Position numbers and translations under genes: made by a program
Source: Chiloscyllium plagiosum
Lineage: Eukaryota
Direction of reading: 5' to 3'
NCBI RefSeq assembly: GCF_004010195.1
Contig: NC_057718.1
Span: 9,443,760-9,507,759 of the forward strand
DNA: 64,000 bases
Shown: positions 1 through 63,465 of the stretch, piece after piece
Numbering within the stretch: the stretch's first letter is position 1
Layout of the letters: every line of letters begins with the position of its first letter
Notes under the pieces: generated by a model
Told to the model about the DNA's origin: nothing
Databases searched by the model: none
The model's input: the letters and a program-made list of their open reading frames with translations, nothing else

Positions 1-155
1 TTAGCCTGCTGGACACACTTTCCTCATTCCTGAAGAAGGGCTTATGCCCGAAACGTCGATTCTCCTGTTCCTTGGATGCTGCCTGACCTGCTGCGCTTTT
101 CCAGCAACACATTTTCAGCTCTGATCTCCAGCATCTGTAGCCCTCACTTTCTCTC
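1..155 (+). mobile_element. Penelope-like element 3' end with hammerhead motif (family A)
   Basis: ATTC-CTGAAGA-A-GGGC-TTAT-GCCC-GAAA-CG-TC-GATT at 26-61. The same tail follows GIY-YIG coding fragments elsewhere in the window. Confidence 0.75.
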
Positions 156-189
156 ATAGATTGGGCCTACATTCAATTGGTCTTTAGTT

Positions 190-595
190 GAACAACAGGC
201 ATTCTTATTGAAGCATGTAAAATTCTTAGGGGTCTGAATAGGGAAGATGCAGGAAGGTTAATTCCACAAATGGGAGAGTCTAAGACCAGAAGGCATAATC
301 TCAGAGTAAAGACTAATTCATTTTTAGACAGAGATGAGGAGGAATTTCTTATGTCAGAGGGTAGTGAATCTGTAGAATTCTTGACCACAGACAGCTTTTG
401 AGGCTGGATTATTAAATATATTCAAGGCTGAGATAGATAGATTTTTAATCAGGAAGAGAATCGAGGATTATGGGGGAAAGGCGGGAAAGCGGAGTTGAGG
501 ATTATTAGATCAGCCATGGACTCATTGAATCACAGAGCAGACTCAATGGGCTGAATGGCCATCTTCTGCTCCTGTGCCTTTTGATCTTATGGTCT
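190..595 (+). mobile_element. CR1-type LINE 3' fragment, decayed
   Basis: Similar to the window's CR1 3' ends (RGHNLR..., RVVNL), with a gggctgaatggcc...cttatggtct tail. Confidence 0.75.
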
Positions 596-851
596 GAAAT
601 GATCAGTAGAAGAAAATCAATTGGAACAGAAAAAGAGTTTAGATCAGAGAAGAGAGAGAGAGAGAAAGAAATCTGAAGTTGTGCCAGAAGGTTAAGGTGG
701 AAAAACATTGCCTGATGTGGCCACCAGAAAGGGTCATGAAAACATGTCGCCCTGGACATAGTGAACAAGATGTTTGCTCATGGTGAGGGAATGGTGAAGA
801 ATTAAATGAATCCGACAAATGGGATAGTTGAGTTGTAAAGGGAGTACCAAT

Positions 852-1275
852 GTTCAAAGTTTGTGCGAAGATTTGTAGCTCGGGTGCTCGTTGTTGTGGT
901 TCTGTTCGCCGAGCTGGAAGTTTTTGTTGCAAACGTTTCGTCCCCTGTCTAGGTGACATCATCAGTGCTTGGGAGCCTCCTGCGAAGCACTTCTTTGATG
1001 TTTCCTCTGGTGTTTGATTAGCCCTGATTCTATTGAATGGTGGAGCAAGCTCAACGAGTTGAACAGCCTATTTCTGTTTTTATTTCTTATGGTCTTATCG
1101 ATTCCAACAATTTCCTCGGACAGCTGAAACTGACAACCGGAAGCGGCAGGGACAGACCACTATAAACACCAGAGGAAACATCAAAGAAGCGCTTCGCAGG
1201 AGGCTCCCAAGCACTGATGATGTCGCCTAGCCAGGGGACGAAACGTTTGCAACAAAAACTTCCAGCTCGGCGAAC
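852..1275. mobile_element. Fold-back Penelope/Poseidon-type insertion with two inverted hammerhead-bearing arms
   Basis: About 904-1016 is the reverse complement of about 1163-1275. TSD GGAGTACCAAT at 841-851 and 1276-1286. Confidence 0.8.
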
Positions 1276-2779
1276 GGAGTACCAATAGTTACTCCAATAT
1301 AAATAGTGCCCGAATCCAGCCCAAATCCAATCAGATGAAAGGGAGAACTAGCCCATATTGGAGAAAGCTTCTCCTCAGCCTCAGATCAAGATGGGTCAAC
1401 ATCATTCTTAAAATTCTGAAAGTGATTAGAAAAAGGAATTAGAAACCAGTGGTTCAGTTAGGTTTCTAAATCCGCAGAAAAACGGAGTTCTGTGTAAATT
1501 GTATGGGTTTTTGAACATCATGCAAACATGCTCATTAAGGGGGCAGGATGTAATAACACTGTCTTGTGTCTGTGTGTGTATATGTATATGTCAGAGTTGG
1601 TTGGCTGGATGGCTGGGTTGAGATGCAGAGAGATGCTAATAAAGTGGGTTCAATTCCCACACTGGCTGAGGTTACCATGAAGGACTCTCCTTCCCAACCT
1701 CCTCCCTCACCTGAGATGTGGTGACCCTCAGGTTAAACCGCCATCTCTCTCCAATAAGAGAGTAGTCCATTGGTCTAATAGGACAATGGCAACCTTCCCT
1801 GTATATATTTGATGCGTGTCCTGACCAAAGCAAGCTGATTTTAATTTGGCATTGATCATCCATGTCTGACCACTGTTTGAGTTCACCCTGCAGAGGTATC
1901 AAAGTGGAGCTGGAGGGATAAAGAGGGTGATGTACTGGAGGAATTTGAAAGCAAGGTAAATTTTTATATGTGGCATTACCAGAAGCCAATCCTGATGGTC
2001 GAGCAGGTGATGATGGGGTGTATTAGGATGGGGAGTAGAGTTTTGACATTTATGAAGGGAGGCCAGATAGGAATACATTGGAATAGCTTCATCTACCAGT
2101 CTGGATGATATACGTGGAGCGCTGTATTTGGTTAATCATCCCAATAGGAGTGAGAGACAGAACTGGGGCAGAGCAGTATGTCATTACCACTGTTTTCAAT
2201 GTTGATTGATTGTCATTTGGGAATCCCTACATTGCTGAGAGTCTCATGTCATTGGCAAGTGAGACTGGATTTATAAAAAATGCATGAAAAATAACTCAGT
2301 TCCTCACTATTCCTGTGACTGCCAGCTCCTTATCCCATCCAGACAGTTTCATTCTACCAGAGTCAAAGTCTGTATGCAAGAGAAATCCAAAACCCTTCCA
2401 TCCTCCAGACCTCATCATGTTTATTGAAAACCTTCTGACATAAATAAACCATTTGCTTGCAGTGATCAGTAAATATGCCAGTAAGAGAATTGTTCTCTCC
2501 ATTTCTGACAAGCAGGCAGTTGACCTCAGAAACTATCAGACAGGGGTCCTAGACATCTAGATCAAAGGATTTAGCACAGGAGATCTAGAACAACAGAGGG
2601 ACAAGAATAGGGGAGCCAGAATGGAGGACTCCGAACTGGGAACCCAGTGCAGGTGATTTAGAATAGGGGACCTCGAGCACAAAGTAGGGAGATAAGGGGG
2701 AGGGGGAATATATTGAGGGATCTGGAGTAAGAAGGGATCTAGAATAAAAGACAATAAGAGACTAATATCATTTACACGT

Positions 2780-3587
2780 TCCCTGATGACACCACCACAA
2801 TCGATTGAATCTCAGATGGTGACAAAACAGACTACAGACGGGAGGTGGGAGACCTGGAAAAATGGTGCACTGAGAACAACCTAGCTCTCAACGCCAGCAA
2901 AACCAAGGAACTCATTATTGACTTTCAGCAGGATCTTACTCATGCCCCCGTACACATTAACAGCACAGAGGTGGAATGAGTGGAGAGTGTCAAGCTCCTG
3001 GGAGTGGTCATCTACAACAAGCTTTCTTGGACTCTTCATGAGGACGCACTGGTTACAAAGGCCCAATAACATCTCTTCTTCCTCAGGCAACTGAGGAAAT
3101 TTGGCATGACAGTGAATACCTTGCCAACTTTTATATGTACGCCATCGAGAGCATTCTGTCTGGATATATCACGACCAAGTATTGCAAGGTCGGAGCCGGT
3201 TACAGAGAGTGGTGAACTCGGCCCGGACACTCACAAAAGCCAACCTCCCATCTATAGAATCCATCTACCAGGTCAGTTGTCAAGGAAACGCTGCCAGCAT
3301 TCTCAAAGATCCATCCCACCCCGGCAATGTTTTTCTACAACCTCTACCGTCGGGGGGAAGGTACAGAAGTGTTTCAAAACAGGTTGTACCCTACTATTGT
3401 TAGAATACTGAATGGACTCACAAACTCTTAACATTCCCCTGTACCTGTGGTTTTGTTTTTGCTGCTGTTTACCTATTATTTACTGTCTACGCTACTTAAC
3501 TCTGTGATCTACCGGTATTACTCACAAGACAAAGCTTTTCACTGTGCCTCGGTACACGTGACAATAAATTCAATTCAATTCAATTCA
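2780..3587 (+). mobile_element. Rex1/Babar-type LINE 3' fragment
   Basis: Decayed RT and downstream region (WCTENNLALNASKTKELIIDF; ASILKDPSHPGN..F.PLPSG.RYRS), ending in AATAAA and (AATTC)4. Confidence 0.8.
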
Positions 3588-5049: not shown

Positions 5050-5275
5050 CCTCTCTGAGTGAAGCAATGCTTCCTGTCACATCCCATATAGACCCAGCCC
5101 CACCTCCCCCATTTATCTCTCCACCCTGGAGGCTTCCTCCCTCTATTCCTGATGAAGGGCCTTTGCCCGAAACGTCGATTTTCCTGCTCCTCGGATGCTG
5201 CCTGACGTGCTGTGCTTTTCCAGCACCACTCTGATCTAAACTCTGGTTTCCAGCATCTGCAGTCCTCACTTTTGC
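5050..5275 (+). mobile_element. Penelope-like 3' end with intact hammerhead core
   Basis: ATTC-CTGATGA-A-GGGC-CTTT-GCCC-GAAA-CG-TC-GATT at 5145-5180. Confidence 0.75.
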
Positions 5276-6078: not shown

Positions 6079-7177
6079 GGTAAAAACAATGACTGCAGAT
6101 GCTGGAAACCAGATTCTGGATCAGTGGTGCTGGAAGAGCACAGCAATTCAGGCAGCATCCGATGAGACGTCAATTTTGCTGCTCGTCGGATGCTACACAT
6201 CCTCCCATCCTGCCCCCTGTAAAAACGCCATCCCATTCTCCCAATTCCTTCGTCTCCGCCGCATCTGCTCCCAGGAGGACCAGTTCAAAATACGTACAAC
6301 ACATGTCCCAGAGGTGCTCTCTGAATCGCTCCGCAAGTAGGCGGCCTGTCTCCCCAATATAGAGGAGGCCACACCGGCTGCAGCGGATGCAGTAGATGGT
6401 GTGGGTGGAGGTGCAGGTGAATCTGTGGCGGATATGGAAGTTTCCTTTGGGGCCTTGGAGAGAAGTGAGGGGGGAGGTGTGGGCGCAAGTGTTGCACCTC
6501 CTGCGGTTGCAAGGGAAGGTGCCGGGAGTGGTGGTTGGGTCGGTGGGGGGTGTGGATCTGACAAGGGAGTCGCGGAGGGAGTGGTCTCTACGGAAAGCTG
6601 ATAGGGGTGGGGAGGGAAATATATCCTTGGTGCTGGGTCTGTTTGGAGGTGGCGGAAGTGACGGCGGATGATGCGCTGTACATGGAGATTGGTGGGGTGG
6701 TAGGTGAGGACCAGTGGGGTTCTGTCCTGGTGGCGGTTGGAGGGGCGGGGCTCAAGGGCGGAGGAGCGGGAAGTGGAGGAGATGCGGGGGGGGGCACCGT
6801 CGACCACGTCGGGGGGGAAATTGCGGTCCTTGAAGAAGGAGGCCATCTGTGTTGTACGTATTTTGAACTGGTCCTCCTGGGAGCAGATGCGGCGGGCCGC
6901 CTTCCTGACCTGCAGTCTTCTTGTTGACCTCTCCGCCTCCATCCTACTCCGACCTATCACCCTCACCTTGACCTCTTTCCACCTATCACATTTCCAACGC
7001 CCCTCCTCCAAGTCCCTCCTCCCTACCTTTTATCTTCTCATGCTGAACACTCTCTGCTCATTCCTGAAGAAGGGCCTGTGCCCGAAACGTCGAATCTCCT
7101 GTTCCCTGGATGCTGCCTGACCTGCTGTGCTGTTCCAGCAATAAAGTTTCAACTGTGCTCTTCCAGCACCACTGATC
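6079..7177. mobile_element. Rearranged Penelope-like element (RT thumb plus GIY-YIG fragments on both strands)
   Basis: + strand YTSSHPAPCKNAIPFSQFLRLRRICS. - strand RTPLVLTYHP and IYCIRCSRCGLLYIGETGR (GIY-YIG). Hammerhead at 7060-7095. Near-perfect TSD CAGTC(G/A)CTACC(T)TATAA at 6062-6078 and 7178-7193. Confidence 0.85.
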
Positions 7178-7644
7178 CAGTCACTACCTATAACCTACCC
7201 TCCCGTAACCTACCTTCCCACCTTAGGCTGCCCCCTATTCACGTTGAACTGCCTACCATCACCGTCCTTGCCCCCATCTTCACACATGCCTCTGCTTTCC
7301 CTGTCCCCAGGCCTTGACACTCCCCGACCCTTTGTGAGATCACCCTGCTGACTATGTCCAGCCCCAACAGACAAGCTAGTGATAATCACAACCTAGTGCA
7401 CAGGAAGAGGCCATTCACGAAGTAGAGCTCAGCCCGATCTCTACTCCTGTTTGGTCTGTACAATGTTGCATAAGGTCTTGGCTCTGAAAGGGTTAATGTC
7501 GGACACTGTTTTCGGCTTTGCTCCAACTGGTGAAGTCCGTCAGGTTTGGGTAAGGAAAAGGCGCAACACTGTCGGACCCACAGAGGGGTCAACAAGACTC
7601 TTTGTAATCTTCACAACAACCCACCAGCTGATATCACTCATAAA

Positions 7645-8189: not shown

Positions 8190-8880
8190 AGTCATAGAGG
8201 AAACAGACCCTTCGGTCCAACCTGTCCACAATTCTAAACTAAACTAGTCCCAGCTGCCTGCTGCTGTCCCATATTCCTCCAACCAGCTTCTGTGCAAAGA
8301 ATTTGCCCCTCATGTCTTTTTTCAATGTCTCTCCTCTCACCTTAAAAATGTGCCCCCTGGTCTTGAAACCCCCCCACCCTGGGGAAAAGACAACTCCCAT
8401 TAACTCTGTCTACACCCATCATTGTTTTATAAACCTGCCTCTCAACCTCCTACGCTCCAGTGAAAACTGTCCCAGCCTCTCCAGTCTTTCTTTATAACTT
8501 AAACCTTCCATACCTGGCAACGTCCCAGTAAATCTCCTTCGAACCCACTACAGCTTAATAGTATCCTTCCGATGACAGTCAGGACTTGGAGATGCCGGTG
8601 TTGGACTGGGGTGTACAAAGTTAAAAATCACACAACACCAGGTTGTAGTCCAACAGGTTTAATTGGAAGCACACTAGCTTTCGGAACGTCGCTCCTTCAT
8701 GATGAACCACCTGATGAAGGAGCAGCGCTCCGAAAGCTAGTGCTTCCAATTAAACCTGTTGGACCTGGTGTTGTGTGATTTTTAACTTCCGAAGACAGGG
8801 TGGCCAGAACTGGACACAGTGCTCCAGAAGAGACCTCACCAGTGTCCTGTACAACCTCAACATGACATCCCAACTCCGAG
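8190..8880 (-). mobile_element. CR1-type LINE 3' fragment interrupted by a PLE palindrome
   Basis: Reverse complement of the window's CR1 copies (LEHCVQFWPP; ctatgact tail). Confidence 0.75.
8579..8785. mobile_element. Fold-back mini-PLE (family B hammerhead)
   Basis: About 8620-8700 is inverted relative to about 8714-8787. CAC-CTGATGA-A-GGAGC-AGC-GCTCC-GAAA-GC-TA-GTG at 8708-8742. TSD CTTCCGA(T/A)GACAG at 8566-78 and 8786-98. Confidence 0.8.
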
Positions 8881-9444: not shown

Positions 9445-9712
9445 GGTAGTGTGGCTGTCAGTTCCGAGATGCTCCTGTTGTATGGTAGTGTGGCTAGTCC
9501 TTTTGGTTGTGGTATGTCCTCGTTCCGTGGTCTTTCTCTTAGGCATCTGTTGATGAAGTTGCGCGGGTATCCGTTTTTGGCGAATACCTTGTATAGGTGT
9601 TAGTTTTCTTCTTTTTGCAGTTCTGGTGTACTGCAGTGTGTTGTGGCCCTTTTGAATAGTGTCCTGATGCAGCTTCGTTTGTGTGTGTTGGGGTGGTTAC
9701 TTTCATAGTTTA
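9445..9712 (-). mobile_element. Penelope/Poseidon RT thumb fragment
   Basis: NYESNHPNTHKRSCIRTLFKRATTHCST...NGYP; homologous to 52925-53100. Confidence 0.8.
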
Positions 9713-9769
9713 GGTTGGTCATAAGGCAAGCCATCACAACGAAAACTGAAACTTTTCTGGACCCAGGGA

Positions 9770-10740
9770 GACCTGATTGCCAGAGAGGATGGCATAGTAT
9801 TATGGGGAGCAAGAGCAGTTGTCCCGAGCAAAGGTCATTACCTGAGACTGGCTGAATTACATCAGGAATGAAGATATTGGCGAGAATTTATGTCTGGTGA
9901 CCAGGATTGAATACTGACATAGCCACGTTGATTGGGCAGAGCCTCGAGTGCCAACAATACATAAACGTCACCAGCAACAGCTCCTCCACATTCACGGGAA
10001 TGGCTGGCTAAACCCTGGACGTGGTTGCAGGTCGACTGTACCATCCTTTCATGGGTTTTATGTTTTTACTCATAGTGGACACCCTCTAATAGTGTTTGGA
10101 CGAGCGCACAGTTCATTTGTCAATGACAGGGTGATGACTGACAAGCTGCAAGCATCTTTTGCAATACACAGACTCCATGAGGTGTTGGTCACAGACAACA
10201 GGCCATTATTTACCAACAAATATTCTGTGTATTTCCTAATGTCGCATGACATTTGGTATGGAAGGACAGCTCCATACCATCCATCGCCAAGTGGTCATGT
10301 GGAAAAAAAGCACAGTCCAAACTTTCAGGGCAGGCTTGAAGAAACAGCCTACAGCTTCACTCGACAACATACTGCCACTGTTCCTATTGAGTCCAGGTCC
10401 ACCCCATACACCTACAGGGACAAATCTAGTAGAATATCCAATGGGGACAAGGCCTTGCACCAGGTTAAATCGGATCTTCCCAAACCAGGAGGGGTGGGGA
10501 TGCGGTGGTGGTGGTGGTGAAACAACTTCAGGAATGCCAATGCTGGATTCAGGACCCTCTGAATCAGAAAGGCTATTTACTTCATAGGACGAAGTTTAGT
10601 TTTGAGACCAAGGAATGCTCCTGCATGTGTAAAAGGCATGGTGGATGAGGGGTCAGGTCCCATGATGAACGAAGTTTGGTTAGGAAATGTGGTCCTGAAC
10701 AGGTACGTGGAACACATGAAAGCTACAACATTGCAAACAA
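9770..10740 (+). mobile_element. Ty3/Gypsy integrase remnant
   Basis: DGIVLWGARAVVP, MKILARIYVW*PGL (HHCC region) and LVTDNRPLFT...RTAPYHPSPSGHVEK..VQTF (DDE core), with stops and frameshifts. Confidence 0.8.
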
Positions 10741-11919: not shown

Positions 11920-13559
11920 AAATGTGCCTCAACAACTACTGCCCAGTAGCTCTAACCTCTATCATCATGAAGTGCTTCGAGAGGCTGGTAACGACCCACA
12001 TTATTAGATTAGATTACTTACAGTGTGGAAACAGGCCCTTCGGCCCAACAAGTCCACACCGACCCGCAACCCACCCAGACCCATTCCCCTACATTTACCC
12101 CTTCACCTAACACTATGGGTAATTTAGCACGGCCAATCCACCTAACCTGCACATTTTTGGATTGTGGGAGGAAACTGAAGCACCTGCAGGAAACCTACGC
12201 AGACACGGGGAGAATGTGCAAACTCCACACAGAGTGTCGCCTGAGGCGGTAATTGAACCCGGGTCTCTGGCGCTGTGAGGCAGCAGTGCTAACCACTGTG
12301 CCACCGTGCCACCCGTATTCTTACCTCGCAGCCTGCCTCAGTCCCCTGCAATGTGCCTACTGGCAAAACAGATCCACAGCCAATTCCCTAGCCCCATTAT
12401 CGCCCTTGGAACATCTGGATAACAAGCACACCTTCATCAGGCTCCTACTCATTGACTACAGCTCTGCCTTCAATGCCACAATCCCCTCCAGACTGATCTC
12501 AAACTCCGAGATCTAGGACTCAACTCCTCCCTCTGCAACTGGATCCTTAGCTTTCTGACTCACAGACTACAATCAGTGAAGATGGACACCTCCATGATAG
12601 CATTCAACACTGGAGACCCCCAGGGATGCGTTCTCAGTCCCCTACTGTACTCGCTGTACACCCACATATGTGTTGCCAAATTCCGCACGAGCACCATCTA
12701 CAAGTTTGGTGAAGACACCACTGTGGTCGAACAAATATGAAACAACGATGAGTCAGAATTTAGGAAGGAGGTAGAGGGCTTGGTGTTGTGGTGCAATGAT
12801 AAAAAATCTCTCTCAATGTCGGCAAAACCAATAAAACTGATCAATGACTACAGGAAGAAAAGGGGCAAACACGCTCTCATCTACATCAACGGAGCGGAGA
12901 TGGAGAGGGTGGAGTTCCTCGGAACAACGACAGCCGACATCCTGTCCTGGACCTCCCCCGTAGATGCAATGGTCAAAAAGGCACAACATCGTCTCTTCTT
13001 CCTCAGGAGGCCCAGGAAATTTGGCATGTCCGTATGGACCTTCACCAACTTCTGCAGCCGCACCATCGAAAGCATACTATCCAAGTGCATCATGGCCTGG
13101 TATGACAGCCTCTCTGCCCAGAACCATAGGAAACTACAGAAGGTGGTGTGCATAGCCCAGACCATCACAGAAGCCAATCTCCCATCCATGGACTCCATTT
13201 ACACAGCTCATTGCCATGGAAATGCTGCCAACATCATCACAGATACCTCCCACCCTGGTAATGCTCTCTTCCAACCTCTTCTGTCAGGCAGAAGATACAG
13301 ACGCTTGAACACTCGCACCAACAGGTTCACAAACAGCTTCTTCCCTACTGTTATTAGACTGTTGAATGGACCTCTCTAACTTCAAATGTTGATCTTGCTT
13401 TGTTCACCTCCTGTACAGTGTAACCCTGTATGCCTTGTGCTGTCTAAGCACCCTATGGTCTGTACGTCTTTGTTTGCTATGATCTGCCTGTACTGCTCAC
13501 AAAACAAAACTTTTCACTGTACTTAGGTACGTGGTACTGCAAAAAATCAAATCAAATCA
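11920..13559 (+). mobile_element. Rex1/Babar-type LINE, 5'-truncated, interrupted by a SINE
   Basis: [50 protein letters not shown] and KAQHRLFFLRR...RFTNSFFP, with an (AAATC)3 tail. Confidence 0.88.
12003..12313 (-). mobile_element. HE1-type (V-SINE) tRNA-derived SINE, full length
   Basis: Reverse complement has an A box (TGGCACAGTGG), a B box (GGTTCAATTAC), the V-domain tgtggagtttgcac and a (TAATC)n tail. Confidence 0.88.
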
Positions 13560-17859: not shown

Positions 17860-19052
17860 AAAAACCAGGACAGAACCCCACTGGTCCTCACCTACCACCC
17901 CACCAATCTCCATGTATAACGTATCATCCGTCGTCATTTCCGCCACCTCCAAACAGACCCCACCACCAGTGATATATTTCCCTCCNNNNNNNNNNNNNNN
18001 NNNNNNNNNNNNNNNNNNNNNNNNNNNNNNNNNNNNNNNNNNNNNNNNNNNNNNNNNNNNNNNNNNNNNNNNNNNNNNNNNNNNNNNNNNNNNNNNNNNN
18101 NNNNNNNNNNNNNNNNNNNNNNNNNNNNNNNNNNNNNNNNNNNNNNNNNNNNNNNNNNNNNNNNNNNNNNNNNNNNNNNNNNNNNNNNNNNNNNNNNNNN
18201 NNNNNNNNNNNNNNNNNNNNNNNNNNNNNNNNNNNNNNNNNNNNNNNNNNNNNNNNNNNNNNNNNNNNNNNNNNNNNNNNNNNNNNNNNNNNNNNNNNNN
18301 NNNNNNNNNNNNNNNNNNNNNNNNNNNNNNNNNNNNNNNNNNNNNNNNNNNNNNNNNNNNNNNNNNNNNNNNNNNNNNNNNNNNNNNNNNNNNNNNNNNN
18401 NNNNNNNNNNNNNNNNNNNNNNNNNNNNNNNNNNNNNNNNNNNNNNNNNNNNNNNNNNNNNNNNNNNNNNNNNNNNNNNNNNNNNNNNNNNNNNNNNNNN
18501 NNNNNNNNNNNNNNNNNNNNNNNNNNNNNNNNNNNNNNNNNNNNNNNNNNNNNNNNNNNNNNNNNNNNNNNNNNNNNNNNNNNNNNNNNNNNNNNNNNNN
18601 NNNNNNNNNNNNNNNNNNNNNNNNNNNNNNNNNNNNNNNNNNNNNNNNNNNNNNNNNNNNNNNNNNNNNNNNNNNNNNNNNNNNNNNNNNNNNNNNNNNN
18701 NNNNNNNNNNNNNNNNNNNNNNNNNNNNNNNNNNNNNNNNNNNNNNNNNNNNNNNNNNNNNNNGGAGGGGGAGTTGAAGTGTTGAGCCACGGGGTGGTTG
18801 GGTTGGTTGGTCCGGGTGTCCCCGAGGTGTTCTCTGAAACATTCTGCAAGTAGGCGGCCTGTCTCTCCAACCTCCTTCCACCTATCGCATTTCCAATGCC
18901 CCTCCCCCAAGTCCCTCCTCCCTACCTTTAATCTTAGCCTGCTTGGCACACTTTCCTCATTCCTGAAGAAGGGCTCATGCCTGAAACATTGATTCTCCTG
19001 CTCCTTGGATGCTGCCTGACCCTGCTGCGTTTTTCCAGCAACACATTTTTGA
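17860..19052. mobile_element. Penelope-like element spanning an assembly gap
   Basis: + strand QDRTPLVLTYHPTNLHV. - strand GETGRLLAECFREHL...PVAQHFNSP. + strand 3' end with a degenerate hammerhead at about 18959-94. Confidence 0.75.
17986..18763. other. Assembly gap (others at 34886-34942 and 42894-43246)
   Basis: Runs of N. Confidence 1.
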
Positions 19053-26283: not shown

Positions 26284-26944
26284 AGATGTCACTGTCTCAC
26301 CAAACAGAGCAAAGCATTAGTTTCCTGTTTATTTTATTGACACAGTTATAGGACAAGTTAAAGCTTTTCTTATTTTAGACAAAAAACAAGATCAAATAAA
26401 GTTACAGCACAGGAACAGGCCCTTCAGCCCTCCAAGCCTGCACCAATCCAGATCCTCTATCTAAACCTGTTGCCTATTTTCTAAGGATCAGTATCCCTCT
26501 GCTCCCTGCCCATTCATGTATCTGTCTAGGTATATCTTAAATGATGCTATTGTGCCTGCCCCTACCACCTCCGCTGGCAACGCGTTCCATGCACCCACCA
26601 ACCTCTGCGTAAAGAACTTTCCACATATAATCCAATCAGACTTGGTCATTATGGAGAGTGTCTTGTCACCAGAGCAGCTGGAAAACTGACAGACTTTCCC
26701 ACATAACTGGGCAGTTCCTTCCTAAACCTAGCCTCACTGTCTCTTTAACCAACGCAGGAGTACACCCCCTGTCATCTTCTCTGAATTCATTGCTTCATTA
26801 GTTTCTTTAGCACACAGGATAAACAGAGGACTGTGTAAAGCAGTCTGGGCAGCTACATGTTCACTTGCATATCTCTTTGAAGATATTTATGACTTTAATG
26901 CCAAAGTCTAAGGCCTTCATAGCCACTACTGTTTACGTAAATAC

Positions 26945-27680
26945 AAACCGAAAGAACTGCAGATGCTGTAAATCAGAAACAAAAACAGAAGTAGTTGTAA
27001 AAGCTCAGCAGGTCTGGCAGCATCTGTGAAGAGAAATCAGAATTAATGTTTCGGGTCTGGTGACCCTTCCTCAGAACTGATGGTAGCAAGGACAATGTCA
27101 GTTTTAATGCACAAGATAGGATGGGTGGGCGGAAGGGTGGGGGGGTAAGGAATAAACGATAGGTGGGAATAGAGCCCAAAGGGAGAGAAGAACCCAGCTG
27201 GACAGAAAAAGGATAATGATCCGGCTGGGAGGGTGAATAGCTGTTAATGGAGACTGTTCGTGGCTAACAGTGGGTGGTGTGTAATGGTAGACTGTGTGAT
27301 AGCAAGATCTGGTGTGTGAGGGTAGGGGGCTAAGACATGGGGGAGTTCAGGCCCTAAAATGATTGAACTTGATATTGAGTCCAGAGGGCTGCAGGGTTCC
27401 TAGGCAGTAAATGAGGTGCTGTCCTTCCAGCTTGCCCTGAGCTTAGCTCGGGCACTGCAGCGAGCCTGAGACAGAGATGTTGGCCAGGGAACAGGGTGAT
27501 GTGTTAAAGTGGCAGGCAACCACAAGGTCAGGGTCTTTTTTTGCAGGCAGGATGTGGATGTTCTGCAAAGAGGTCATCCAGTCTACGGCTTCATTTCCCC
27601 AAAGTAGTAGGAGACAACATTGTGAGCAGCGAATGCAGTAGATCAGATTGTGAGAAATGTGGGTAAAGTGCTGCTTCACT
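26945..27680 (-). mobile_element. Penelope-like GIY-YIG and 3' end with hammerhead
   Basis: HNLIYCIRCSQC.LL...VACHFN. Reverse complement CTGAGGA-A-GGGTC-ACCA-GACCC-GAAA-CA-TT at 27041-27078. Confidence 0.78.
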
Positions 27681-34522: not shown

Positions 34523-34635
34523 TTCAAGATTAAGTTTACAATAAATAGAATAATGTTCTATTCATGATGAAACACGGTGTGACTTACTTTTATCTTGAAT
34601 AGCAATCCACTTAGAACCTCAAAAATATGGAAGTA

Positions 34636-35648: not shown

Positions 35649-35649
35649 T

Positions 35650-35902
35650 TCCACCCATCAGGTCCACACTAACCCTCTGAAGGACCTTCCACCCCACCCC
35701 TTTAACCCTGCATTTCCCATGGCCAATCCATCCAACCTGCACATCTTTGGGCTGTGGCAGGAAACCAGAGCATCCAGAAGAAACCCACGCAGACATGGGG
35801 AGAGTGTGCAAACTCCACACAGACAGTCATTTGAGGCTGGAATTGAACTTGGGTCCCTGGCACTGTGAGGCAGCAGAGCTAACCACTGAGCCAAGGTGCC
35901 AT
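35650..35902 (-). mobile_element. HE1-type SINE, tail-to-tail with the preceding copy
   Basis: tRNA head and V-domain on the - strand. Confidence 0.82.
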
Positions 35903-40914: not shown

Positions 40915-41325
40915 CTGGAGGAAGAACGTCCCACCTTCCATCTTGGGACCCTCCAACCACACGGGATCAACATCAATTTCACCAGTTTCCTCATCTCCTC
41001 TCCCCCCACCCCATCCCAGATCCAACCCTCCATCTTAGCACCACCTTCTTGACCTGTCCTACTGATCCATCTTCCTTCCCACCTCTCCATTCCACCCTCC
41101 CCACTGTCTTATCACCATCACCCCTCCAGCTGCATCTACCTATCACCTTCTCAGGTACCATCCCCCCAGCCCCACACCCCTTCCTATTTATCTCTCAGCC
41201 CCCTTCTGCATCTCTGCCCCCCAGTCCTCCAACATTCCTGATGGAGGGCTTATGCCTGACACATCGATTCTCCTGCTCCTCGGATGCTGCCTGACCGGCT
41301 GTGCTTTTCCAGCACCACACTTGTT
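40915..41325 (+). mobile_element. PLE 3' fragment with degenerate hammerhead
   Basis: LEEERPTFHLGTLQPHGINI remnant. CTGATGG...GACAC mutated core at about 41234-70. Confidence 0.7.
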
Positions 41326-41664
41326 GATATAACTTTCCAGCCAGCTTCTAAAATACATCTTGTAATAAATCCTTTTCAATTTTATTTACTGGTTTTATTG
41401 AACTACTCAGATGCTGCTAAGAGAGAGGACGTCAAACACCAAAAGAGGACCCAGACTCCAGTTAAATGTTGGCGGACATTACTGTGATACAGATCCTATC
41501 ACACATGTCTAGTTACTAAACTAAAAGTGCCCTTTACTAGACCCCTGCTGAAATTTCTTTGCCTCAAACGTTTTGCCGTCAGAGTTGGCAAACATCTCCA
41601 ATTGCTGGAGACTGAATCTGCCTCCATCAGGAAGTGCAATCCACATCCAGTCGCTGCTTAAAAG

Positions 41665-42645
41665 GCTATGACAACGGATGAATGGGCACCGCACAACAAT
41701 CAACAGACAGGAGGGTTCCCTCCTAGTCGGGGAACACTTCAGTGGTCCAGGACATTCAGCCTCGGACCTTCGGGTGACCATCCTCCAAGGCGGACTTCAG
41801 GACAGGCAGCAGCGAAAAGTGGCCGAGCAAAGACTGATTGCTAAGTTTGGTACCCATAGTGAGGGCCTCAACCAGGATCTTGGGTTCATGTCACATTACA
41901 GGTGACCACCATTGCACTATACACACACACACAGGCACTCCTATACACACATACACATGGACACACACATATACACAGACGCGCACACAGACACCCACAC
42001 ATACCCTTACAGACACACACACTCCCACACTCACACATGCATCCCCTCACAGACTTAAGACACTCTACACTCACTACACACACACATACACTTTCTCACA
42101 CTCACAACCCCCTACCCAGACAGACAGACAAAGACCCACATGCACACATATATTTTGTGGGGTGAATTTGTACTTGCAGGGTTACATTGTACTTTGCACA
42201 AAACTGCATGCATTCATGTAGAACTCTGTTATCTCACTTTTTAGATTAGAATCAATCTAAACATCATGGCATAGACAGAGAACACAGGGGGCTAACACCT
42301 TCAACATATTGTCTAGCTATCACCATTGTTAACAGCTAACCTGAGAATGCAACTTTATTAAAAAAAGGTTTTGTGATTTACACATGAAAGAAGTGAAACT
42401 ATCATAGTATTCAAACAGATGGAAGACTTAGCAATCAATTTTTCAATGTATAATTTCAGTTACATCACACTGTAAACTTTTGCTATAAATTCTGCGTTTT
42501 AGGATTGAGTCCTCCACTATCACCTGATGAAGGAGCAATGCTCCGAAAGCTAGTGTGCTTCCAATTAAACCTGTTGGACTATAACCTGGTGTTGTGTGTT
42601 TTTTAACTTTGTGCACCCCAGTCCAACACCGGTCTCTCCGAATCA
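41665..42645 (+). mobile_element. Penelope-like element: GIY-YIG C-terminus, CA-rich 3' region, family-B hammerhead
   Basis: RMNGHR...VGEHFSGPGHS.SDL.V..LQG......RKVAEQRLIAKFGTH..GLN. Hammerhead at 42521-42555. Confidence 0.85.
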
Positions 42646-43679
42646 TGGTTAAATAGGTTTTCTTCAAGTCACCATTGATTCCATTGGCAGTCACCTTGAA
42701 TCAGTGATCTCTGATCCTGAACCCTTCTCCCCGTCTGCTCTGTCCGGACCGCACAAGATTTGCACCATCTCTAACAAGCTACCCGCCCACCTTCTCCTTC
42801 AGAGAAAGGAGACCTTCCTCCCATCCAGCTTAACCCCATCCACCCTCCCCCTCAACCCCCTCCCCTTTAACAGCACTCCCCCTCAACCCTCTCNNNNNNN
42901 NNNNNNNNNNNNNNNNNNNNNNNNNNNNNNNNNNNNNNNNNNNNNNNNNNNNNNNNNNNNNNNNNNNNNNNNNNNNNNNNNNNNNNNNNNNNNNNNNNNN
43001 NNNNNNNNNNNNNNNNNNNNNNNNNNNNNNNNNNNNNNNNNNNNNNNNNNNNNNNNNNNNNNNNNNNNNNNNNNNNNNNNNNNNNNNNNNNNNNNNNNNN
43101 NNNNNNNNNNNNNNNNNNNNNNNNNNNNNNNNNNNNNNNNNNNNNNNNNNNNNNNNNNNNNNNNNNNNNNNNNNNNNNNNNNNNNNNNNNNNNNNNNNNN
43201 NNNNNNNNNNNNNNNNNNNNNNNNNNNNNNNNNNNNNNNNNNNNNNCTTCCCAAACCCCTCCCCCTCAATCCCATTCCCCTTTTCCCCTTTCAACTCCCT
43301 CTCCCCTCAACTCCATCCACCCTCTCCCTCCCCCATCACCCACCAACACAAATTGGTCGACTCACAACGACAGATGACTGTTATTGCCCCCCCTCCAGGG
43401 TGGGTGGGAATGAGATACACAGCTTCTGGGAGCCATTTAAATGGTGGGGGGCAAGCACAAAAAACAGCCCCGAACGGCCTTTCTCTGTCCAAATGCCCCT
43501 GTGATCCTGTCGTCTCTGCCTTCAGTGAGTTTCCTTAACTTCCTTCCTGATCGATGGGCCTACCTTCTCCTCAATGCATTGTGGAGTCTTTCATTTCACA
43601 AAAGATTGTCCACACATGTTTTATTTTCCATTGTTGAGACACCTCAAGCAAACAACATAGCTATGTTTCCAATTTAAAC

Positions 43680-46745: not shown

Positions 46746-47373
46746 TGAGATGATGCTGTTGCATTCGAGAGGTTATTTTTGTCCTGGTTTTCTTTTCTCA
46801 AAGAGAAATTGTAAGGCAAAGGTAGCGAGCTGTCTCTAAGAAAGCAAACAATTTGTGAGGCTTTGGGGAGTTTTTTAAAGCAGCCTGGGTGTGGCTGGCT
46901 CTCACAGACCATGCTTTCTCGTTTTTATTTATGCTGTAGAGATGTTGGTGTTGGACCGGGATGGACAAAGTCAGAAATCACACGACACCAGGTTGTAGCC
47001 TAACAGGTTCATTTCAAGTCACAAGCTTTCTGAGCACTGCCCCTTTGTCAAGTGAAATCCAGGAAGGAGCAGTGCTCCAAAAGCTTGCGATTTCAAATAA
47101 ACCTGTTGGGCTGTAACCTGGTGTCGCGTGACTTCTGCCTGCTACTCTCTCTGAATTTTCTCTCGATGTGTTTTTCCTCCCAGATTGGAGAACTGCGCGT
47201 GAGAATCTGTGTCTTTTAACTACGTTGTTTAAATCAATTGTGTTTTGCTTAATGTTGAGTAGTCGACCAGCCACATTGCATCTGGGACAGACACATCATA
47301 ATTGCCTTTAAAATAAGAAAAAGATAGGCTACCTTCTAAAATATTTTGAGGAGGTCTGATCTGGTCCATAACA
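46746..47373 (+). mobile_element. LTR (same family as 19719-20384) with nested PLE palindrome at about 46940-47135
   Basis: Ends ...gatctggtccataaca, the reverse complement of the 19719 start. Internal inverted arms. Confidence 0.6.
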
Positions 47374-49992: not shown

Positions 49993-50275
49993 ATTTAAAA
50001 ATCATAGAACACCGGGTTATAGTCCAACAGAAGGGCTTATGCCCGAAACGTCAATTCTCCTGTTCCTTGGATGCTACCTGACCTGCTGCGCTTTCCCAGC
50101 AACACATTTTCAGGTTTAATTGGAAGCACTAGCTTTCAGAACGCTGCTCCTTCATCCGGTGGTTGAAGGAGCAGCGTTCCGAAAACTAGTGCTTCCAATT
50201 AAACCTGTTGGACTAAAATCTGGTGTTGTGTGATTTTTAACTTTATACACCCAGACCAACACCGGCAACTCCAAA
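49993..50275. mobile_element. Fold-back mini-PLE (family B) with nested family-A fragment (about 50030-50110)
   Basis: Inverted arms around about 50158. TSD TCATCTTTCAA at 49982-92 and 50276-86. Confidence 0.75.
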
Positions 50276-51964
50276 TCATCTTTCAAGTGACCACACTCAC
50301 CAAAGGCAATTTTCAAAACCAAAACTCTACATTGACAAGGAGAGTAAAAAAAAGAGTTCAGTGAAAGAACACTAAAAGAGAAACAGTGAACCATTAGATC
50401 AAGGTCCTGTCTGGACTCTCAGGTGAATATCAAACACACCCTGCTCTGTATTTGAAGAGGCCAGGTATTCTCAGGTGTCTTGGAATTGATTGATCTCCTC
50501 AGTCAACATCCCAAAAGACTATCTGGTCACTACTGTGATAAATTATTTATGTTATGTATATCATTTGAGGATTGGATTTTGAAATAGAGGAAGAAGGTTG
50601 TGGGTCAGTTCTGTGAAGATAATCTTTTGGTTACAAGGTCAGAAAGCTTTTTTTATTATTCATTTGTAGGATGTGCGAGCTGGGCCAGTGTTTATTGCCC
50701 GTCCCTAGTTGCCCCCTTTCTTGAATCACTGCAGTTCACCTGCTGTGGGTTGACCCACAATACCATTCGGGAGGGAATTCCAAATTTTTGGTCTAGCGAC
50801 TGTGAGGGAATGGCGATATATTTCCAAGTCAGGATGGTGGGTGGCTTGGAGGGGAACTTTGAAGCAGTGATCTAAGTACATCAATTCCACGCAGGCATGT
50901 GACTGCAGTCTACTGCCTGATGAGCCCTCTGTAGTCTTAATGGATGGAATGTTTAAATTGTTGAACTTATGACAGACCAGAACAATCATTAGTTTTTGGC
51001 TTTTGAGTTCAGTTTGGAAGAAACAGGAGTTCAGTTCAGAAGGGAGGATAGTTTGCATTAGCAGATGGATCAAGCTTTTAGGTTGTGCAAACAAGTGATC
51101 CTCGCAGAAGCGTTTTAGTTTGTGAAGCTTCCAAGCCAGGAGAGTTTGGATGAAAATCTTCAAATTGTTAGAACCACAAAGGTTTAAGCCTTTTGTGAAA
51201 GTTTCAGGACTCGAAATTGTAAAACTGTCTCCACAATCCAAGGAAAGAAAATTGGAAGAAGACAGTTAAGGAAAAGCTTGAAAGATGGGAGAGAGAAATT
51301 TCAGTGGAATTCAGTGTATAATAGAATAATAAAATAAAGAATTGTGGATGCCGGAAATCTGAAACAAGCAAAAACAAATTGCTGAAGAAACTCAGCAGGT
51401 CTGGCAGTATCTGTGGGGAGAGAAACATCATAGTGTGAGGATGTTCTATATACCCACAAAGATATCATTGCAAACCTGGACTGCTTAGCTTCTAAGCTTT
51501 GAAACTGAATTTGAGTCCAGTGACCCTCAGAACAAAAGGATAAATACAAGGATAGTGTTGGGACACAGTTTGAAACTTCTGCGTTGCACTTTGCAGAATC
51601 TTTCCAACTCACTTTAACTGATTGTTTTTTCTTTCTCTTTTACCTTATAAACTTATGTTCTGTTTCTAAAGAATATGAACAAAAAACAACTCTGACATGC
51701 AACTGCAGAAATGAAACTTATGACCTATCAAGCCAGCTCTCATTCTGGGATCTGATTTGTACAGAAATAGCATTAGCTCAGACCATGACATAATCACATT
51801 GCTTTCTGTGCACAGATTTACTGTGATGTTTCTTAGATTTCAATAGTGAGTATACATGAAAGATTTTTAAATCCCTTTAAGGGGATGTCAACACCACTGG
51901 TCAAAGCCTTTGAACTCAGCAGCTTGTAAAGCCATGGCAAAGGGTCGTTAAGAATCAACTCCAT

Positions 51965-52839: not shown

Positions 52840-53749
52840 TGAGATCTTGAAGAAGATTTGTAGCTCAGATAGTGGATCAGGTTGTCAGTGTGCTGGCTGA
52901 GCTGGTGAGTTTGTTTTCAGGCGTGCACCCAGACCAGATACTCAACTACAGGAGCAACCATCCCAACTCCCACAAACAGTGCTGCAATAGGACACTATTC
53001 AAACAAGCCACAACACACTGCAGTACCCTGCAACTACGAGAAACCAAGGAGAAACACCTAGATAACGTATTCAGGAACAACAGCTACCCAATAAAGTGCA
53101 GTCCGCCGATTCCTATACAACAGACCTAACCAGGAAGACACATTCGGCCCAGACGCTCTAGTCACGCTACCACACATCAAAGGCATCTTAGAGATGACTA
53201 CCAGACTACACCGGCCCCTAAGTAGCCCACAAACCTACCACCCCACTGAAATAGCTCTGATGAATTTAGAGGAGCCCGTACTCACAACCACCAGAATGAG
53301 CGTCATATATAAAATACCCTGCAAGGATTGCAATAAACATTACATCGGACAGGCGGGCAGGAAACTAGCCACCAGGATACACAAGCACCAACTACTCACC
53401 AAAAGACATGACCAACTATCACTGGTATCCATATACACAGACGAAGAGGGACAGGCTATGGATACATCCATCCTGGGACAGGCTAAACAAAGTCACATAC
53501 GGGAATTCCTAGAGGCCTAGCATTCAAGCCGGAACTCCATTAACAAACATACAGGCTTGGGCCCCATTTATCAACCTCTCAGAAACAGAACTGGAAGTGA
53601 TATCACCCACTACAACAGACCAAGGCACATAAATAGCAAATGGTTCAGAACACTAGTGCTTTACCGGAGGCTCACTGATGATGTTACTGAGCATGGTGAC
53701 GAAACATCTGAGAACAAACCCATCAGCTCATTGAGTAACCCGTCAACCA
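52840..53749 (+). mobile_element. Penelope/Poseidon element, 5'-truncated, with inverted 5' terminal piece
   Basis: RT thumb ILNYRSNHP..HK and GIY-YIG VIYKIPCKDCNKHYIGQAGRKLATRIHKH...REFLEA. Hammerhead at 53671-53712. TSD GAAT(G/A)GACCTT at 52829-39 and 53750-60. Confidence 0.88.
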
Positions 53750-54041
53750 GAATAGACCTTAAACACCTCCCAAACATTTAGTTTCTTTTCCCTCCAGGAA
53801 GGCAGGAGGGGTAGAAAATCAAAAGCAAACATACATGTCCTCTTCTACTTTTTGCCAACTCCCCAGTCACTAAGCTCCCAAGTTTGTAGTCTGTTCCCTC
53901 AGTACAGTCAGTTGTTGTGGCTGTAAAAAATAACTCTGTGTTAAAAGACAGCTGAACTGATGCTAGGCTGGACCTATCTGAGTATTAATGTGTCACTGAG
54001 AAGGGGATCATTGGTGTTTTCCTGGTAATCTCCAAAGATTC

Positions 54042-54120
54042 AAAAAGTGTGGTGCTGAAAAAGCACAGGCAGCATCCGAGGAACAGAAGAGTCGACGTTT
54101 CGAGCACAAGCTCTTTCTCA
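54042..54120 (-). mobile_element. 79-bp PLE hammerhead fragment with 16-bp TSD
   Basis: TAATCTCCAAAGATTC at 54026-41 and 54121-36. Reverse complement TGAGAA-A-GAGC-TTGT-GCTC-GAAA-CG-TC. Confidence 0.8.
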
Positions 54121-55255: not shown

Positions 55256-55950
<695 letters not shown>

Positions 55951-57889: not shown

Positions 57890-59606
<1,717 letters not shown>

Positions 59607-59651
59607 TTAGTGGTTCAACCAATTATTAGACAACCAAACGCCCATAAAAAG

Positions 59652-60548: not shown

Positions 60549-60779
60549 GTGAATTGTGTACAGGTGTCTGGGGACTCAGACAGAGCTCACAGACTGAAAT
60601 TTAAACTCCTTACATTGTCATGATCATGATCCACCTGGAAATTACACAAACACACACTGTATTCACAGACAGTGGGCTTTTTCAATCAGTTCTGTATTGT
60701 CTGACAGGGATGGAAGGTAGACTCTTTAGGAGAAGCTAAACAGGAATAAGCAAGAGGCATAAAAATGCGTTTTAATGAT

Positions 60780-61035
60780 GCTGGCTGGGAAATAACTATC
60801 AACCACAACACCAGGAAGAATTCACTGGCTGTTTTCAAAAGGTGCCATGGGATCTGATTCAAGCAGGTCAAAGAGATCTCCGTTTTATCCCTGCACCAGA
60901 AAGAAACAGCACCTTCAGCAATGCAGCACTCCCTCAGCCCTGTACTGGGGGATGTCAATCAGAACACAAGGCTCAACTACCTAAAGTGGAGCTTGAACTC
61001 ACAATCATTAAGTGTAGAGGCAAGAGCACTGCCTG
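60780..61035 (-). mobile_element. DeuSINE (SacSINE1/AmnSINE-like) fragment
   Basis: Reverse complement has gagtgctgcattgctgaaggtgctgtttc...agatcccatggcac, resembling the Deu domain from memory. Related fragments at about 50400-50535 (+) and 61480-61610 (-). Confidence 0.55.
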
Positions 61036-62896
61036 GAGAGCCACATTGCAATGCTGCAAGCTTCCCACTTGTATTGTTATTATTATTGGCCATTTTCCTG
61101 TGTCAACTGTGTTTTGTGATGTCAACAGTCACAATATGGCAGGACATGTCCACCATGTGGCTCTATGGAACAGGTTTCTAAACTCACACATAAATCATTT
61201 CCATCAACTGGCCAACTGGTTTGGTACAACAGTTCACCACAATCCTGGGTACATAAAGTCTGCATTTTGTTTCAGCTGCATTTTGTTTCAACAATCTCAA
61301 GATAAACTAAATTGTTTTGCAGGCACCTCTGTACAGTATAAAGCACTGATTCCCACAGCAACCAAATCAGCTGTTTTAGTGATGTTCAGGAGAGATAGTT
61401 ATCAGCCAGCGCATAGGCAGAACTTCCCTCCTTCTCCTAAAATAGCATTGGTAGGCAGGGATTGTTTAATATCTCATTCGGGAGACTGTATCTCTGACAG
61501 TGCAGCACTCCCTCAGTACTGCACTGTAAGCCTGTGTTGTTTTTGCATTCTGTTCTTTGCATCAGCCCACAACCCCTTGGACTCATGAGACAAGCATGTT
61601 ACACACCGAGCACAGCTACTACCTAAGCTTAACATAAATCCTAAAGCATGTGATTTAACCACAATGGCCATTAGCTTTATTGTATATTTTACATCTCAGA
61701 TCTCTGTAGAGATTATGTTAATTTCTATGCATATGTCATGTTTTATTCAGTGTTTAAAATGTCTCCTTCATAATTATAGCCATTTCTTGCACTTTCTACA
61801 ATTTTATTTACGTTTCTTGGACTCTACATCTGGTCTTAACCACAGTAAGCATCAATAGAAGAGATACGTAATCAAATACAGAACAATTGAACACTACAGC
61901 TTGTAACATTGTTATTGCAGGGCTAGGCTGCCTGATTGTATTAATGTGCAAAGTTTAAAGTAATCAGAGTTTCTCTGTCTTAATGGATCCAATGCCAATG
62001 TAACATTGAGAATTGAGAGATTCCAAAGATTCACAATCTCCTGCTGTCTCACCAGGCAGGCTAGCTAAAAGTAAATTTCTACATTCACATTGCTCATTCC
62101 CAATTAAATATTTTATGGAATTCTTGAACTGTTGCAAGAGTGACTGCTGAAGGAAGGAAATCTGCCTGGTGGGTGAGATAGTATTATGGGCAGTAAATGA
62201 AGGTTACAAGGATGCGACATTTGAGCTGATCGTTTTCATATGAACCAAACGTTGTGGGAAATGGGTGATGACATGGGGTACTGCTGCAATTAAAGGGCTA
62301 ATGCTAGGACAAGCCTGGTGAGCTCAGTCAAGATCATAAGAAATAGGAGTTCAACGTGATTTCAAGCTGAGAAATAGGTACATAGCCCCCCTTGCAAGCT
62401 GCGAGTGGATCAATTTCGAAATAACCAGCAGTGAACGCTTACTCTTAAACAAGATCAAGGTTAGTTTATTACACTGTTGTAAGCTATTTAAGTTAAAGAG
62501 ATGAAATTACTACTAAAGGCATACAAGGATGAGATGCAATCAGTAGCTATAACAATCTTTAGGATTCCAATGCAAGCTGTAGATTGCAATTGAAAGTGTA
62601 GAGTGAAGGTCAGAGGTTGAGGAGTTGTGTTCAGCAGCTGGATGGTTTCTGTAATTGACAGAATTTGCCTTTATGGTCAATAGAGCAACTTGAGGGTTCC
62701 TTAAAGGTTCAGCCGGTATGAATTTTGAATAAGTTTTGTTTTGGAAGGACAGGGGTGACTCTTCGTCCTGGGCAGCTTCTTCTGTAATTCCCGGAACTCC
62801 AATCTCACGTGCAGTTCACAATTAGCTCAGTCAAGAACAGCGACCGAAGCTGTCTTCATAGTTTCTGCTCAGATCGCTGCTCAAATTGGCCAGACC

Positions 62897-63312
62897 CATA
62901 GAATCATGGAAGGTAGCAGCGGGAGGAGGCCATTCAGCCCTTCGAGCTTACTCCACCATTCATCACAATCATGGCTGATCATCCAATTCAATAGCCTAAT
63001 CGTGCTTTCTCCTCATAACCTCTGATCCCATTCGCCCCAAATGCTATCTCTAGCCGCCTCTTAAATATATTCAATGTTTTGGCATCAACTTCTTCCTGTG
63101 GTAATGAATTCCACAGGTTCACCACTCTTTGGGTGAAGATATATCCCCTCATCTCCATCCTAAATGGTCCACCCCAAACCCTCAGATTGTGACCCCCTGG
63201 TTCTGGATGCACCCATCATTGGGAACATCCTCCCTGCATCTACCATGTCTAATCCTGTTAGAATTTTATAAGTCTCTATGAGATTCCCCCCTCACTCATC
63301 TGAACTCCAGTG
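62897..63312 (-). mobile_element. CR1 3' fragment
   Basis: GHNLRV..GPFRMEMRGYIFTQRVVNLWNSLPQ. Confidence 0.85.
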
Positions 63313-63371
63313 ACTATTTCTTATGTTCTACCTTAAACCAAAATGAGAATGTGCTGGTCTGTGTGTGACAC

Positions 63372-63465
63372 TTTCCTGAAGAAGGGCCTGTGCCCGAAGC
63401 GTCGAATCTCCTGTTCCCTGGATGCTGCCTGACCTGCTGTGCTGTTCCAGCAATAAAGTTTCAAC
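63372..63465 (+). mobile_element. Short PLE family-A end with a mutated hammerhead core (GAAG)
   Basis: Nearly identical to 7061-7153. Confidence 0.78.

Follow-up and report, generated by a model that had tools for sequence, protein, structure and literature searches.

The 64,000-nucleotide stretch of the Chiloscyllium plagiosum genome studied here (NC_057718.1, positions 9,443,760 to 9,507,759; hereafter the window) carries dispersed motifs that are almost certainly relics of minimal type I hammerhead ribozymes, located in the pseudo-long terminal repeats (pLTRs) of at least five lineages of endonuclease-bearing Penelope-like elements (PLEs). The original prediction, made from the sequence alone, had listed ten such motifs in three families (A, B and C) and proposed that several PLE lineages each retain a minimal hammerhead of their own. 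This proposal held, and the motifs were found in sense downstream of remnants of the GIY-YIG endonuclease.

Hammerhead motifs in the window and in the genome

All ten motifs were recovered at their predicted positions and strands, each with the core CUGANGA ... GAAA ... UH and with helix I open (type I), and the cut positions proposed for three of them (7091, 8739 and 53708) are the correct H17 bases. A descriptor combining CUGANGA, a stem II of at least three pairs and GAAA-NN-UH gave 11 matches in the window, namely these ten and one starting at 18963, compared to a mean of 0.06 and a maximum of one match in 100 second-order Markov controls of 64 kb each. Exact-pattern searches of the 3.56-Gb assembly with three patterns, for families A, B and C, retrieved 99,585, 18,531 and 15,280 matches, respectively (approximately 133,000 together, or one per 27 kb of genome), while the three reversed patterns gave none in the whole genome. 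An Rfam scan of the window at the gathering threshold returned no matches, which would be in line with chance matches to a short degenerate motif. However, the excess over both types of control and the fixed place of the motifs at PLE ends already refute this explanation, to which we assign practically no probability.

The list of ten was correct but incomplete, as at least eight partial or decayed copies had been overlooked (at 18959, 30264, 41234, 46931, 50029, 50111, 54037 and 63373). The window copies are insertion relics, several of them decayed. No same-strand tandem able to form a dimer in cis was present among the window motifs; the close pairs 929/1211 and 8703/8711 are head-to-head, and mutual sequestration is expected. 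The non-LTR retrozymes of animals (bioRxiv 10.64898/2026.07.22.740005) are similar in being non-coding, hammerhead-bearing and PLE-derived, but they form head-to-tail tandem arrays, whereas the short copies (stubs) seen here are dispersed, solo or head to head. An assignment of the window motifs to retrozyme arrays was rejected, since none of the 34 tandem-repeat rows of the window overlapped a hammerhead match.

Association with Penelope-like elements

GIY-YIG remnants with a motif downstream in sense were identified for family A (18764-18892), for family B (41633-41902, separated from the motif by a CA-rich untranslated region, UTR), for a further lineage D (27389-27679, minus strand) and for both lineages of family C (52920-53688, old; 1102-1227, young). 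Using Pfam model PF01541, the window pieces scored 21.8 and 18.1, just missing the cut-off of 22.6, and locus L091 scored 24.1. With regard to the PLE-type reverse transcriptase (RT), the window holds thumb remnants only. For family C, RT is carried by the database proteins P0003 and P0004 (91% identical to 9447-9713) and by P0008, while no RT core was seen for lineages A, B and D. At the protein level, the nearest named relatives are from carpet sharks. A CX4CxxC linker precedes the endonuclease in family A and is missing in the family C relatives, and no CX2-5CxxC linker was seen for the B or D remnants. As the CX2-5CxxC linker has been assigned to the Neptune clade (PMC8557442), family A appears to be a Neptune-type element.

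The 3' ends of the copies were bimodal, falling at 86-99 and 123-133 in family A (55 copies) and at 83-93 and 115-123 in family B (58 copies). These two clusters, approximately 35 bases apart, correspond to the optional tail of PLEs. Head-to-head (inverted) arms were observed at 901-1278, at 8583-8788 and in locus L092. This architecture resembles that of known endonuclease-bearing PLEs in its 5' truncation, inverted 5' copy, palindromic junctions, 30-40-base tail and pLTR promoter, as well as in the Neptune linker of family A (PMC8557442, PMC3846280, PMC2377424). The window also contains three N gaps (17986-18763, 34886-34942 and 42894-43246); the first separates the two inverted arms of one family A element, and gaps are similarly placed in L091 and L092, indicating that head-to-head PLE inserts break this assembly.

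The copies and remnants in the window are listed below with their strand (a point where no single strand is given).

26-61 (+): family A (subfamily A2) hammerhead, imperfect helix I; pLTR tail to about 150
929-967 (-): family C (young) hammerhead, in the inverted arm (901-1015) of a head-to-head insertion
1102-1230 (+): C-terminal end of the family C PLE open reading frame (ORF), through the ribozyme core to TAG 1228-1230 in loop II; 69% to P0003
1211-1250 (+): family C (young) hammerhead; ATG 1220-1222; predicted cut after 1247
5145-5180 (+): family A (subfamily A3) hammerhead, imperfect helix I
6308-6894 (-): inverted, frameshifted thumb, Zn-linker and GIY-YIG remnant of family A (putatively Neptune-type); PF01541 E 2.4e-4, below cut-off
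6923-7155 (+): family A1 pLTR with 3' UTR, TTTATC 7029-7034, putative transcription start A 7060, hammerhead 7060-7095 (4-bp helix I, predicted cut after 7091) and tail
8583-8788 (.): family B head-to-head mini-insertion; full hammerhead 8708-8742 (+) and partial minus-strand arm with optional tail
9447-9713 (-): family C RT-thumb and linker remnant; 91% to P0003 and P0004
18764-19049 (+): family A2 3' fragment; GIY-YIG remnant 18764-18892, decayed hammerhead 18959-18994
26941-27679 (-): lineage D 3' fragment; decayed GIY-YIG 27389-27679, 3' UTR, hammerhead 27041-27078 (palindrome decayed), tail
30215-30291 (-): decayed hammerhead and tail of a further lineage (E)
34261-34523 (+): family B pLTR; TATAAA 34366-34371, hammerhead 34403-34437 (G10.1.U11.1), tail
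41234-41322 (+): decayed family A-type copy, broken core
41633-42647 (+): family B 3' fragment; GIY-YIG remnant 41633-41902, CA-rich 3' UTR, TATAAA 42484-42489, putative start A 42516, hammerhead 42521-42555, tail
46931-47140 (.): old family B-type head-to-head mini-insertion, decayed cores
50029-50279 (.): family A2 short copy that begins within the core and directly adjoins a family B head-to-head mini-insertion at 50111-50279
52920-53745 (+): family C (old) 3' fragment; remnant of thumb and GIY-YIG, with hammerhead 53671-53712, in which the palindrome and the loop-II stop have decayed
54037-54115 (-): decayed partial family A-type copy
63373-63467 (+): young A1 short copy starting at helix I, A15.1 changed to G; 98.9% to 7061-7155

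Motif anatomy and lineages

Motif statistics were obtained from 62 distinct sequences among 112 matches in the window and 90 loci. The counts are not independent of one another, since the sequences come from approximately six to eight lineages and pattern matching selected many of the loci. In line with the prediction, the stems differed among lineages while pairing was retained, and the letters of the catalytic core were kept across lineages with differing stems. Conservation was compared between lineages, the only informative level, as neutral decay sets in once a copy has inserted. Helix I, which the descriptor did not demand, was paired at position 1 in 52 sequences and at position 2 in 54, with C-G, A-U and U-A pairs all represented; a U.U at pair 3, typical of the commonest A subfamilies, was present in 17. 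In stem II, pair 10.1-11.1 was G-C in 47 sequences and G-U, which fits CpG decay, in 15; pair 10.2-11.2 was G-C (47), U-A (13) or A-U (2), and six types occurred at pair 10.3-11.3, although the evidence from such compensatory changes is partly circular because the descriptor demanded stem II pairing. An extra base between 9 and 10.1 gave the better fit in all 62 sequences (A 49, U 12, G 1), many of which had been picked by patterns already holding that base. At 15.2-16.2 the letters were GC (22), CG (19), CA (13), TG (7) and other (1), so that the palindrome was kept in 41 of 62, while CA and TG (20 of 62) are CpG-decay products of CG. Minimum-energy homodimer folds of five motifs with ViennaRNA, not an informative method here, did not produce the catalytic dimer.

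The predicted families required some revision. The helix I sequence proposed for family A, ATTC/GAAT, applies at 7060-7095 only; at 26-61 and 5145-5180 it is ATTC/GATT, that is, two pairs, a U.U and one pair. The motif at 27041-27078 had also been placed in family A but represents the separate lineage D, with a stem II and an endonuclease of its own. Similarly, the CTCA/TGAG helix I of family C is found at 53671, whereas the motifs at 1211 and 929 have GCA/TGC. The short palindrome said to replace helix III is present in most motifs but has been lost at 27041 and 53671 (ACAT). Together with the G10.1.U11.1 carried by the motif at 34403, this is consistent with CpG decay.

Start points of inserted copies

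The 5' junctions were mapped on tail-bearing copies not chosen for a ribozyme or endonuclease, excluding those touching N or a locus edge; positions are counted from the C of CUGA. Among 50 A copies, 29 started at -14 to +9, none at -69 to -15, 11 at +20 to +46 and 10 further upstream, two of the latter being the references themselves. The 29 include at least one diverged long copy (41238) and many head-to-head arms. In family B, 17 of 31 copies started at -15 to +5. Genome-wide, a non-reference base directly preceded A(-4) in 2,374 A1 copies, compared to 39 at the control position -10, and 4,607 copies were exact to -14. Junctions at the A1 cut site numbered 135 (a purine directly before the cut-site product, a figure with no total or neighbouring control count). 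The A1 junction is thus sharp and lies on helix I, not at the cut site. Inserted copies seldom begin at a predicted cut site, so that the cut sites are no marker of element ends. For family B, 3,293 copies had a non-C before A(-8).

These junctions bear on a model proposed in PMC4209133 and reviewed in PMC6765202, in which ribozyme dimers cut tandem or read-through transcripts to unit-length, perhaps circular RNA that is then reverse transcribed. The family C ORF, which fills the whole unit with an 11-base start/stop overlap (see below), would suit such a circular or tandem unit, and religation would restore the site, so that inserts need not begin at the cut. However, the A1 counts favour helix I over the cut site, a circular template without a fixed 5' end leaves a sharp junction at -4 or -8 unexplained, and core mutants left insertion of an Anolis element in vitro unaffected (PMC11167929). 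We therefore regard processing of this kind as unlikely, although not negligible.

An intron ending at helix I, as described for D. virilis Penelope, was also considered and rejected, since no shared upstream exon was seen by eye among the short copies. The D. virilis element is TATA-less and starts well upstream (PMC8557442, PMC3846280, PMC2377424), in contrast with the elements described here, which gave no sign of an intron and whose inferred start is helix I itself. In addition, A and B stubs fused directly at or inside their ribozymes were observed at L087:1500-1560 and at 50029-50160 of the window, which suggests mutual insertion or template switching between the families.

Signs of a possible transcription start at helix I

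The letters preceding the junctions were counted by hand in the first 100 listed matches per pattern. In family B, G preceded the junction in 67 of 100 matches, compared to 17 of 100 one base upstream (Fisher p 6e-13). In A1, the corresponding values were 45 of 100 at the junction and 9 of 39 at control position -10 (p 0.02); 16 of the 44 matches preceded by A were accounted for by eight perfect head-to-head palindromes. Further, G preceded the start in 6 of 11 solo stubs, two of which are not clean solos, and in none of 52 long copies (p 0.02). Untemplated 5' G in L1 and SVA has been ascribed to cap copying (PMC3287187).

In all five B references, TATAAA or CATAAA was located at -38 to -40, that is, 30-32 bases before A(-8); five of six A references carry (T/C)TTATC at -35 to -37. 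Promoters within pLTRs are already known (PMC2377424, PMC3846280), and a TATA box with an initiator was proposed earlier for a rotifer pLTR (PMC8557442, PMC3846280, PMC2377424). Taken together, the junctions at helix I, the upstream TATA-like box and the extra G suggest that a capped, uncut RNA served as template.

The accumulation of starts could, alternatively, be structural, with the folded motif marking where complementary DNA (cDNA) snaps back or is trimmed and being kept mainly as a protein-binding fold with little cleavage. This would agree with the many short copies that are fold-backs with junction microhomology in or beside the motif, with the U.U in helix I of the commonest A subfamilies and with the low in vitro activity of such motifs (PMC4209133). 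Nevertheless, RT reaches the 3' side of the fold first, yet the junctions lie just beyond its 5' edge, where solo stubs also end. Neither the TATA-like box approximately 30 bases upstream nor the retention of the catalytic-core letters across lineages with different stems favours this explanation, which we consider quite unlikely.

RNA reads were available from one polyA single-cell run (X22), of which approximately 2% was used, with 997 reads on 6850-7250. At 7060 the read depth rose on both strands, being 47/55 before and 148/183 after the step, and the loose ends were unrelated (agreement 0.39), a pattern compatible with passive transcription of dispersed stubs. X23 (0 reads) and X1 (0 contigs) are uninformative for this interval. 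In the X22 reads, A-to-G changes at 7086-7087 (core A14 and A15.1) numbered 38 of 260 and 39 of 266 in one read direction, compared to 3 of 211 and 3 of 215 in the opposite direction (p about 1e-7). Two possible sources are a single variant locus that is expressed and A-to-I editing of head-to-head copies in double-stranded form. With regard to possible 3'-end signals, ATTAAA and AATAAA, two common polyadenylation hexamers, alternate among copies in the family B tail (for example at 42563-42568 and 34443-34448), approximately 37 bases after the core start; A1 has AATAAA at +75, which A2 lacks.

Proposed mechanism

The mechanism that we favour, at slightly better than even probability as a whole, combines a capped start at helix I, stubs as full cDNAs, twin priming and cleavage as an off-switch. 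The pLTR would act as promoter for the unit that follows it. Capped RNA would begin, in families A and B, on the 5' strand of helix I, making the ribozyme the first 35-40 bases of the mRNA; in family C the ribozyme carries the start codon. The element protein would prime reverse transcription at one of two internal sites, approximately 85-130 bases farther along. Long 5'-truncated inserts would arise from priming in the 3' pLTR copy, and the 90-130-base stubs of ribozyme plus tail, often head-to-head twins, from priming in the 5' copy with a run to the cap. The insertion template would mostly be uncut RNA. Cleavage would require a second RNA (through the palindromic 15.1-16.1) or the protein, and would separate the RNA from its cap in families A and B and from its start codon in family C. 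Its likeliest role may be to shut off the element's own mRNA slowly and in a dose-dependent manner rather than to act as a step in insertion. The more specific claim, that the PLE hammerhead is a 5'-leader switch whose cutting curbs expression of the element once two RNAs or the protein fold it into its active form, and that tens of thousands of stubs are complete leader cDNAs, some with a cap-derived G, is plausible but falls somewhat short of an even chance.

PLEs retain a ribozyme that is nearly inactive. Their hammerheads are weakly active, only as dimers or trimers (PMC4209133), dimer cleavage having been described by Lunse et al. (via PMC6765202). In the PAc element of Anolis, priming is internal, uncut RNA is the main substrate and cleavage needs protein (Frangieh et al. 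2024, PMC11167929). Should the stubs mark the capped 5' end, the shark genome would show that uncut RNA gets inserted, thereby providing in vivo support for the Anolis result obtained in vitro.

Several points weigh against this mechanism. The off-switch role of cleavage is putative, and cut RNA that fails to integrate for other reasons might still matter. Full pLTR-ORF-pLTR units were not encountered in this genome, and two long frames that were retrieved proved to be N gaps. The excess of G is partly confounded, as the letter before the start of a twinned insert belongs to the end of the opposite arm, a stretch rich in G and A; a few head-to-head pairs with G on both arms plus a spacer are not explained in this way. 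The B control at -10 was unclean, with 2,727 copies (65 of 100 T) arising via fold-back microhomology, and is usable for the letter comparison only. In family C, a start guessed at -18 (207 copies, 61 of 100 T) showed neither a pile-up nor an excess of G and was rejected. Finally, no pile-up of molecule ends at 7060 or 7091 was detected in X22, a library poorly suited to such a test.

Start and stop codons within the family C ribozyme

In family C, the endonuclease frame continues through the ribozyme core to a loop-II TAG, its stop codon, which a hand count found in 25 of 34 copies (1228-1230 in the window); P0003 and P0004, predicted proteins from two other sharks, terminate at the same stop. 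In addition, A9, the extra U and G10.1 form an ATG (1220-1222); the extra base would thus be conserved in family C because it is the U of AUG. The peptide opened by this ATG corresponds to residue 19 onward of the 656-residue shark protein P0008 (92% over 36 residues, E 2.6e-11; one match from two candidates), in which the ribozyme-encoded peptide is in frame with a PLE N-terminus and RT. Start and stop overlap by 11 bases, as pieced together from different copies, and the predicted cut lies 27 bases past the start codon. Judged from its sequence, the family C ribozyme appears to be triple-coded, holding a catalytic core, the last codons and stop of one unit and the start codon of the next.

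A similar arrangement is known from PAc, a Poseidon element of Anolis carolinensis, whose start codon also lies at the start of stem II, with the cut 26 bases downstream of it, compared to 27 in family C (PMC11167929). PAc likewise has two internal priming sites that define the optional tail, with both DNA strands extended. However, PAc has a 126-base UTR before the start codon (PMC11167929), whereas in family C the ORF of the previous unit runs through the core to its stop in loop II, with the 11-base overlap.

The position of the start codon also bears on the idea that cleavage is an on-switch, either releasing the ORF from a host transcript that reads through it or initiating translation independently of the cap, the latter being promoted by self-cleavage in the leaders of some RNA viruses (PMC13725137). 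Family A, with an ATG downstream of the cut site, would allow this, but the N-terminal peptide opened there gave no significant match to database proteins (one candidate, a weak test), and in family C the cut would remove the start codon. An on-switch is accordingly very unlikely in our estimation, and the off-switch outlined above remains the preferred role. As a further observation on family C, P0005 and P0007, carpet-shark isoforms of MAP3K7 and of a CUE-domain gene, end in family C endonuclease sequence, and represent PLE pieces in predicted last exons that are either genuine or annotation artefacts.

Comparison with known PLE hammerheads

The motifs, with their extra base and palindrome, fall within a class known since 2014 and stand out only through their abundance. 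As in the metazoan PLE hammerheads of Cervera and de la Pena (2014, PMC4209133), they are type I without a true helix III, with a palindromic 15.2-16.2, the extra base between 9 and 10.1, G10.1-C11.1 and a short helix I, and they form several consensus families per genome, mostly as solo copies. The approximately 133,000 copies retrieved here with three exact patterns compare to about 4,000 in coelacanth and 9,000 in Xenopus, obtained with another search method (PMC4209133). The available portion of that paper neither names sharks nor describes the start-site pile-up and the extra G found here. A literature search covering few subscription papers yielded no paper on shark PLE hammerheads, although the 2014 supplements may list shark motifs, and nothing on helix-I-starting stubs, on a cap G among PLEs or on a ribozyme that contains a stop codon. 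The retrozyme preprint (bioRxiv 10.64898/2026.07.22.740005) includes one cartilaginous fish.

Other content of the window

An exon-like segment at 55256-55470 (+) matched Pfam Taxilin (E 7e-21) and is probably a host gene exon, so that part of the window may be intronic. Decayed RT pieces of LINE (long interspersed nuclear element) type were found at 58078-58832 (+), 12741-13379 (+) and 3043-3585 (RVT_1, E 6e-11 and 9e-10), and many 3' ends resembling those of LINEs or short interspersed nuclear elements (SINEs) recur across the window. A decayed segment at 9918-10520 (+), with no Pfam match, resembles by eye a remnant of an LTR-retroelement integrase. The 420-base imperfect inverted repeat at 35405-35825 consists of two copies of a SINE-like family, and a single C2H2 zinc finger at 32787-33194 (-) was matched weakly, below cut-off.

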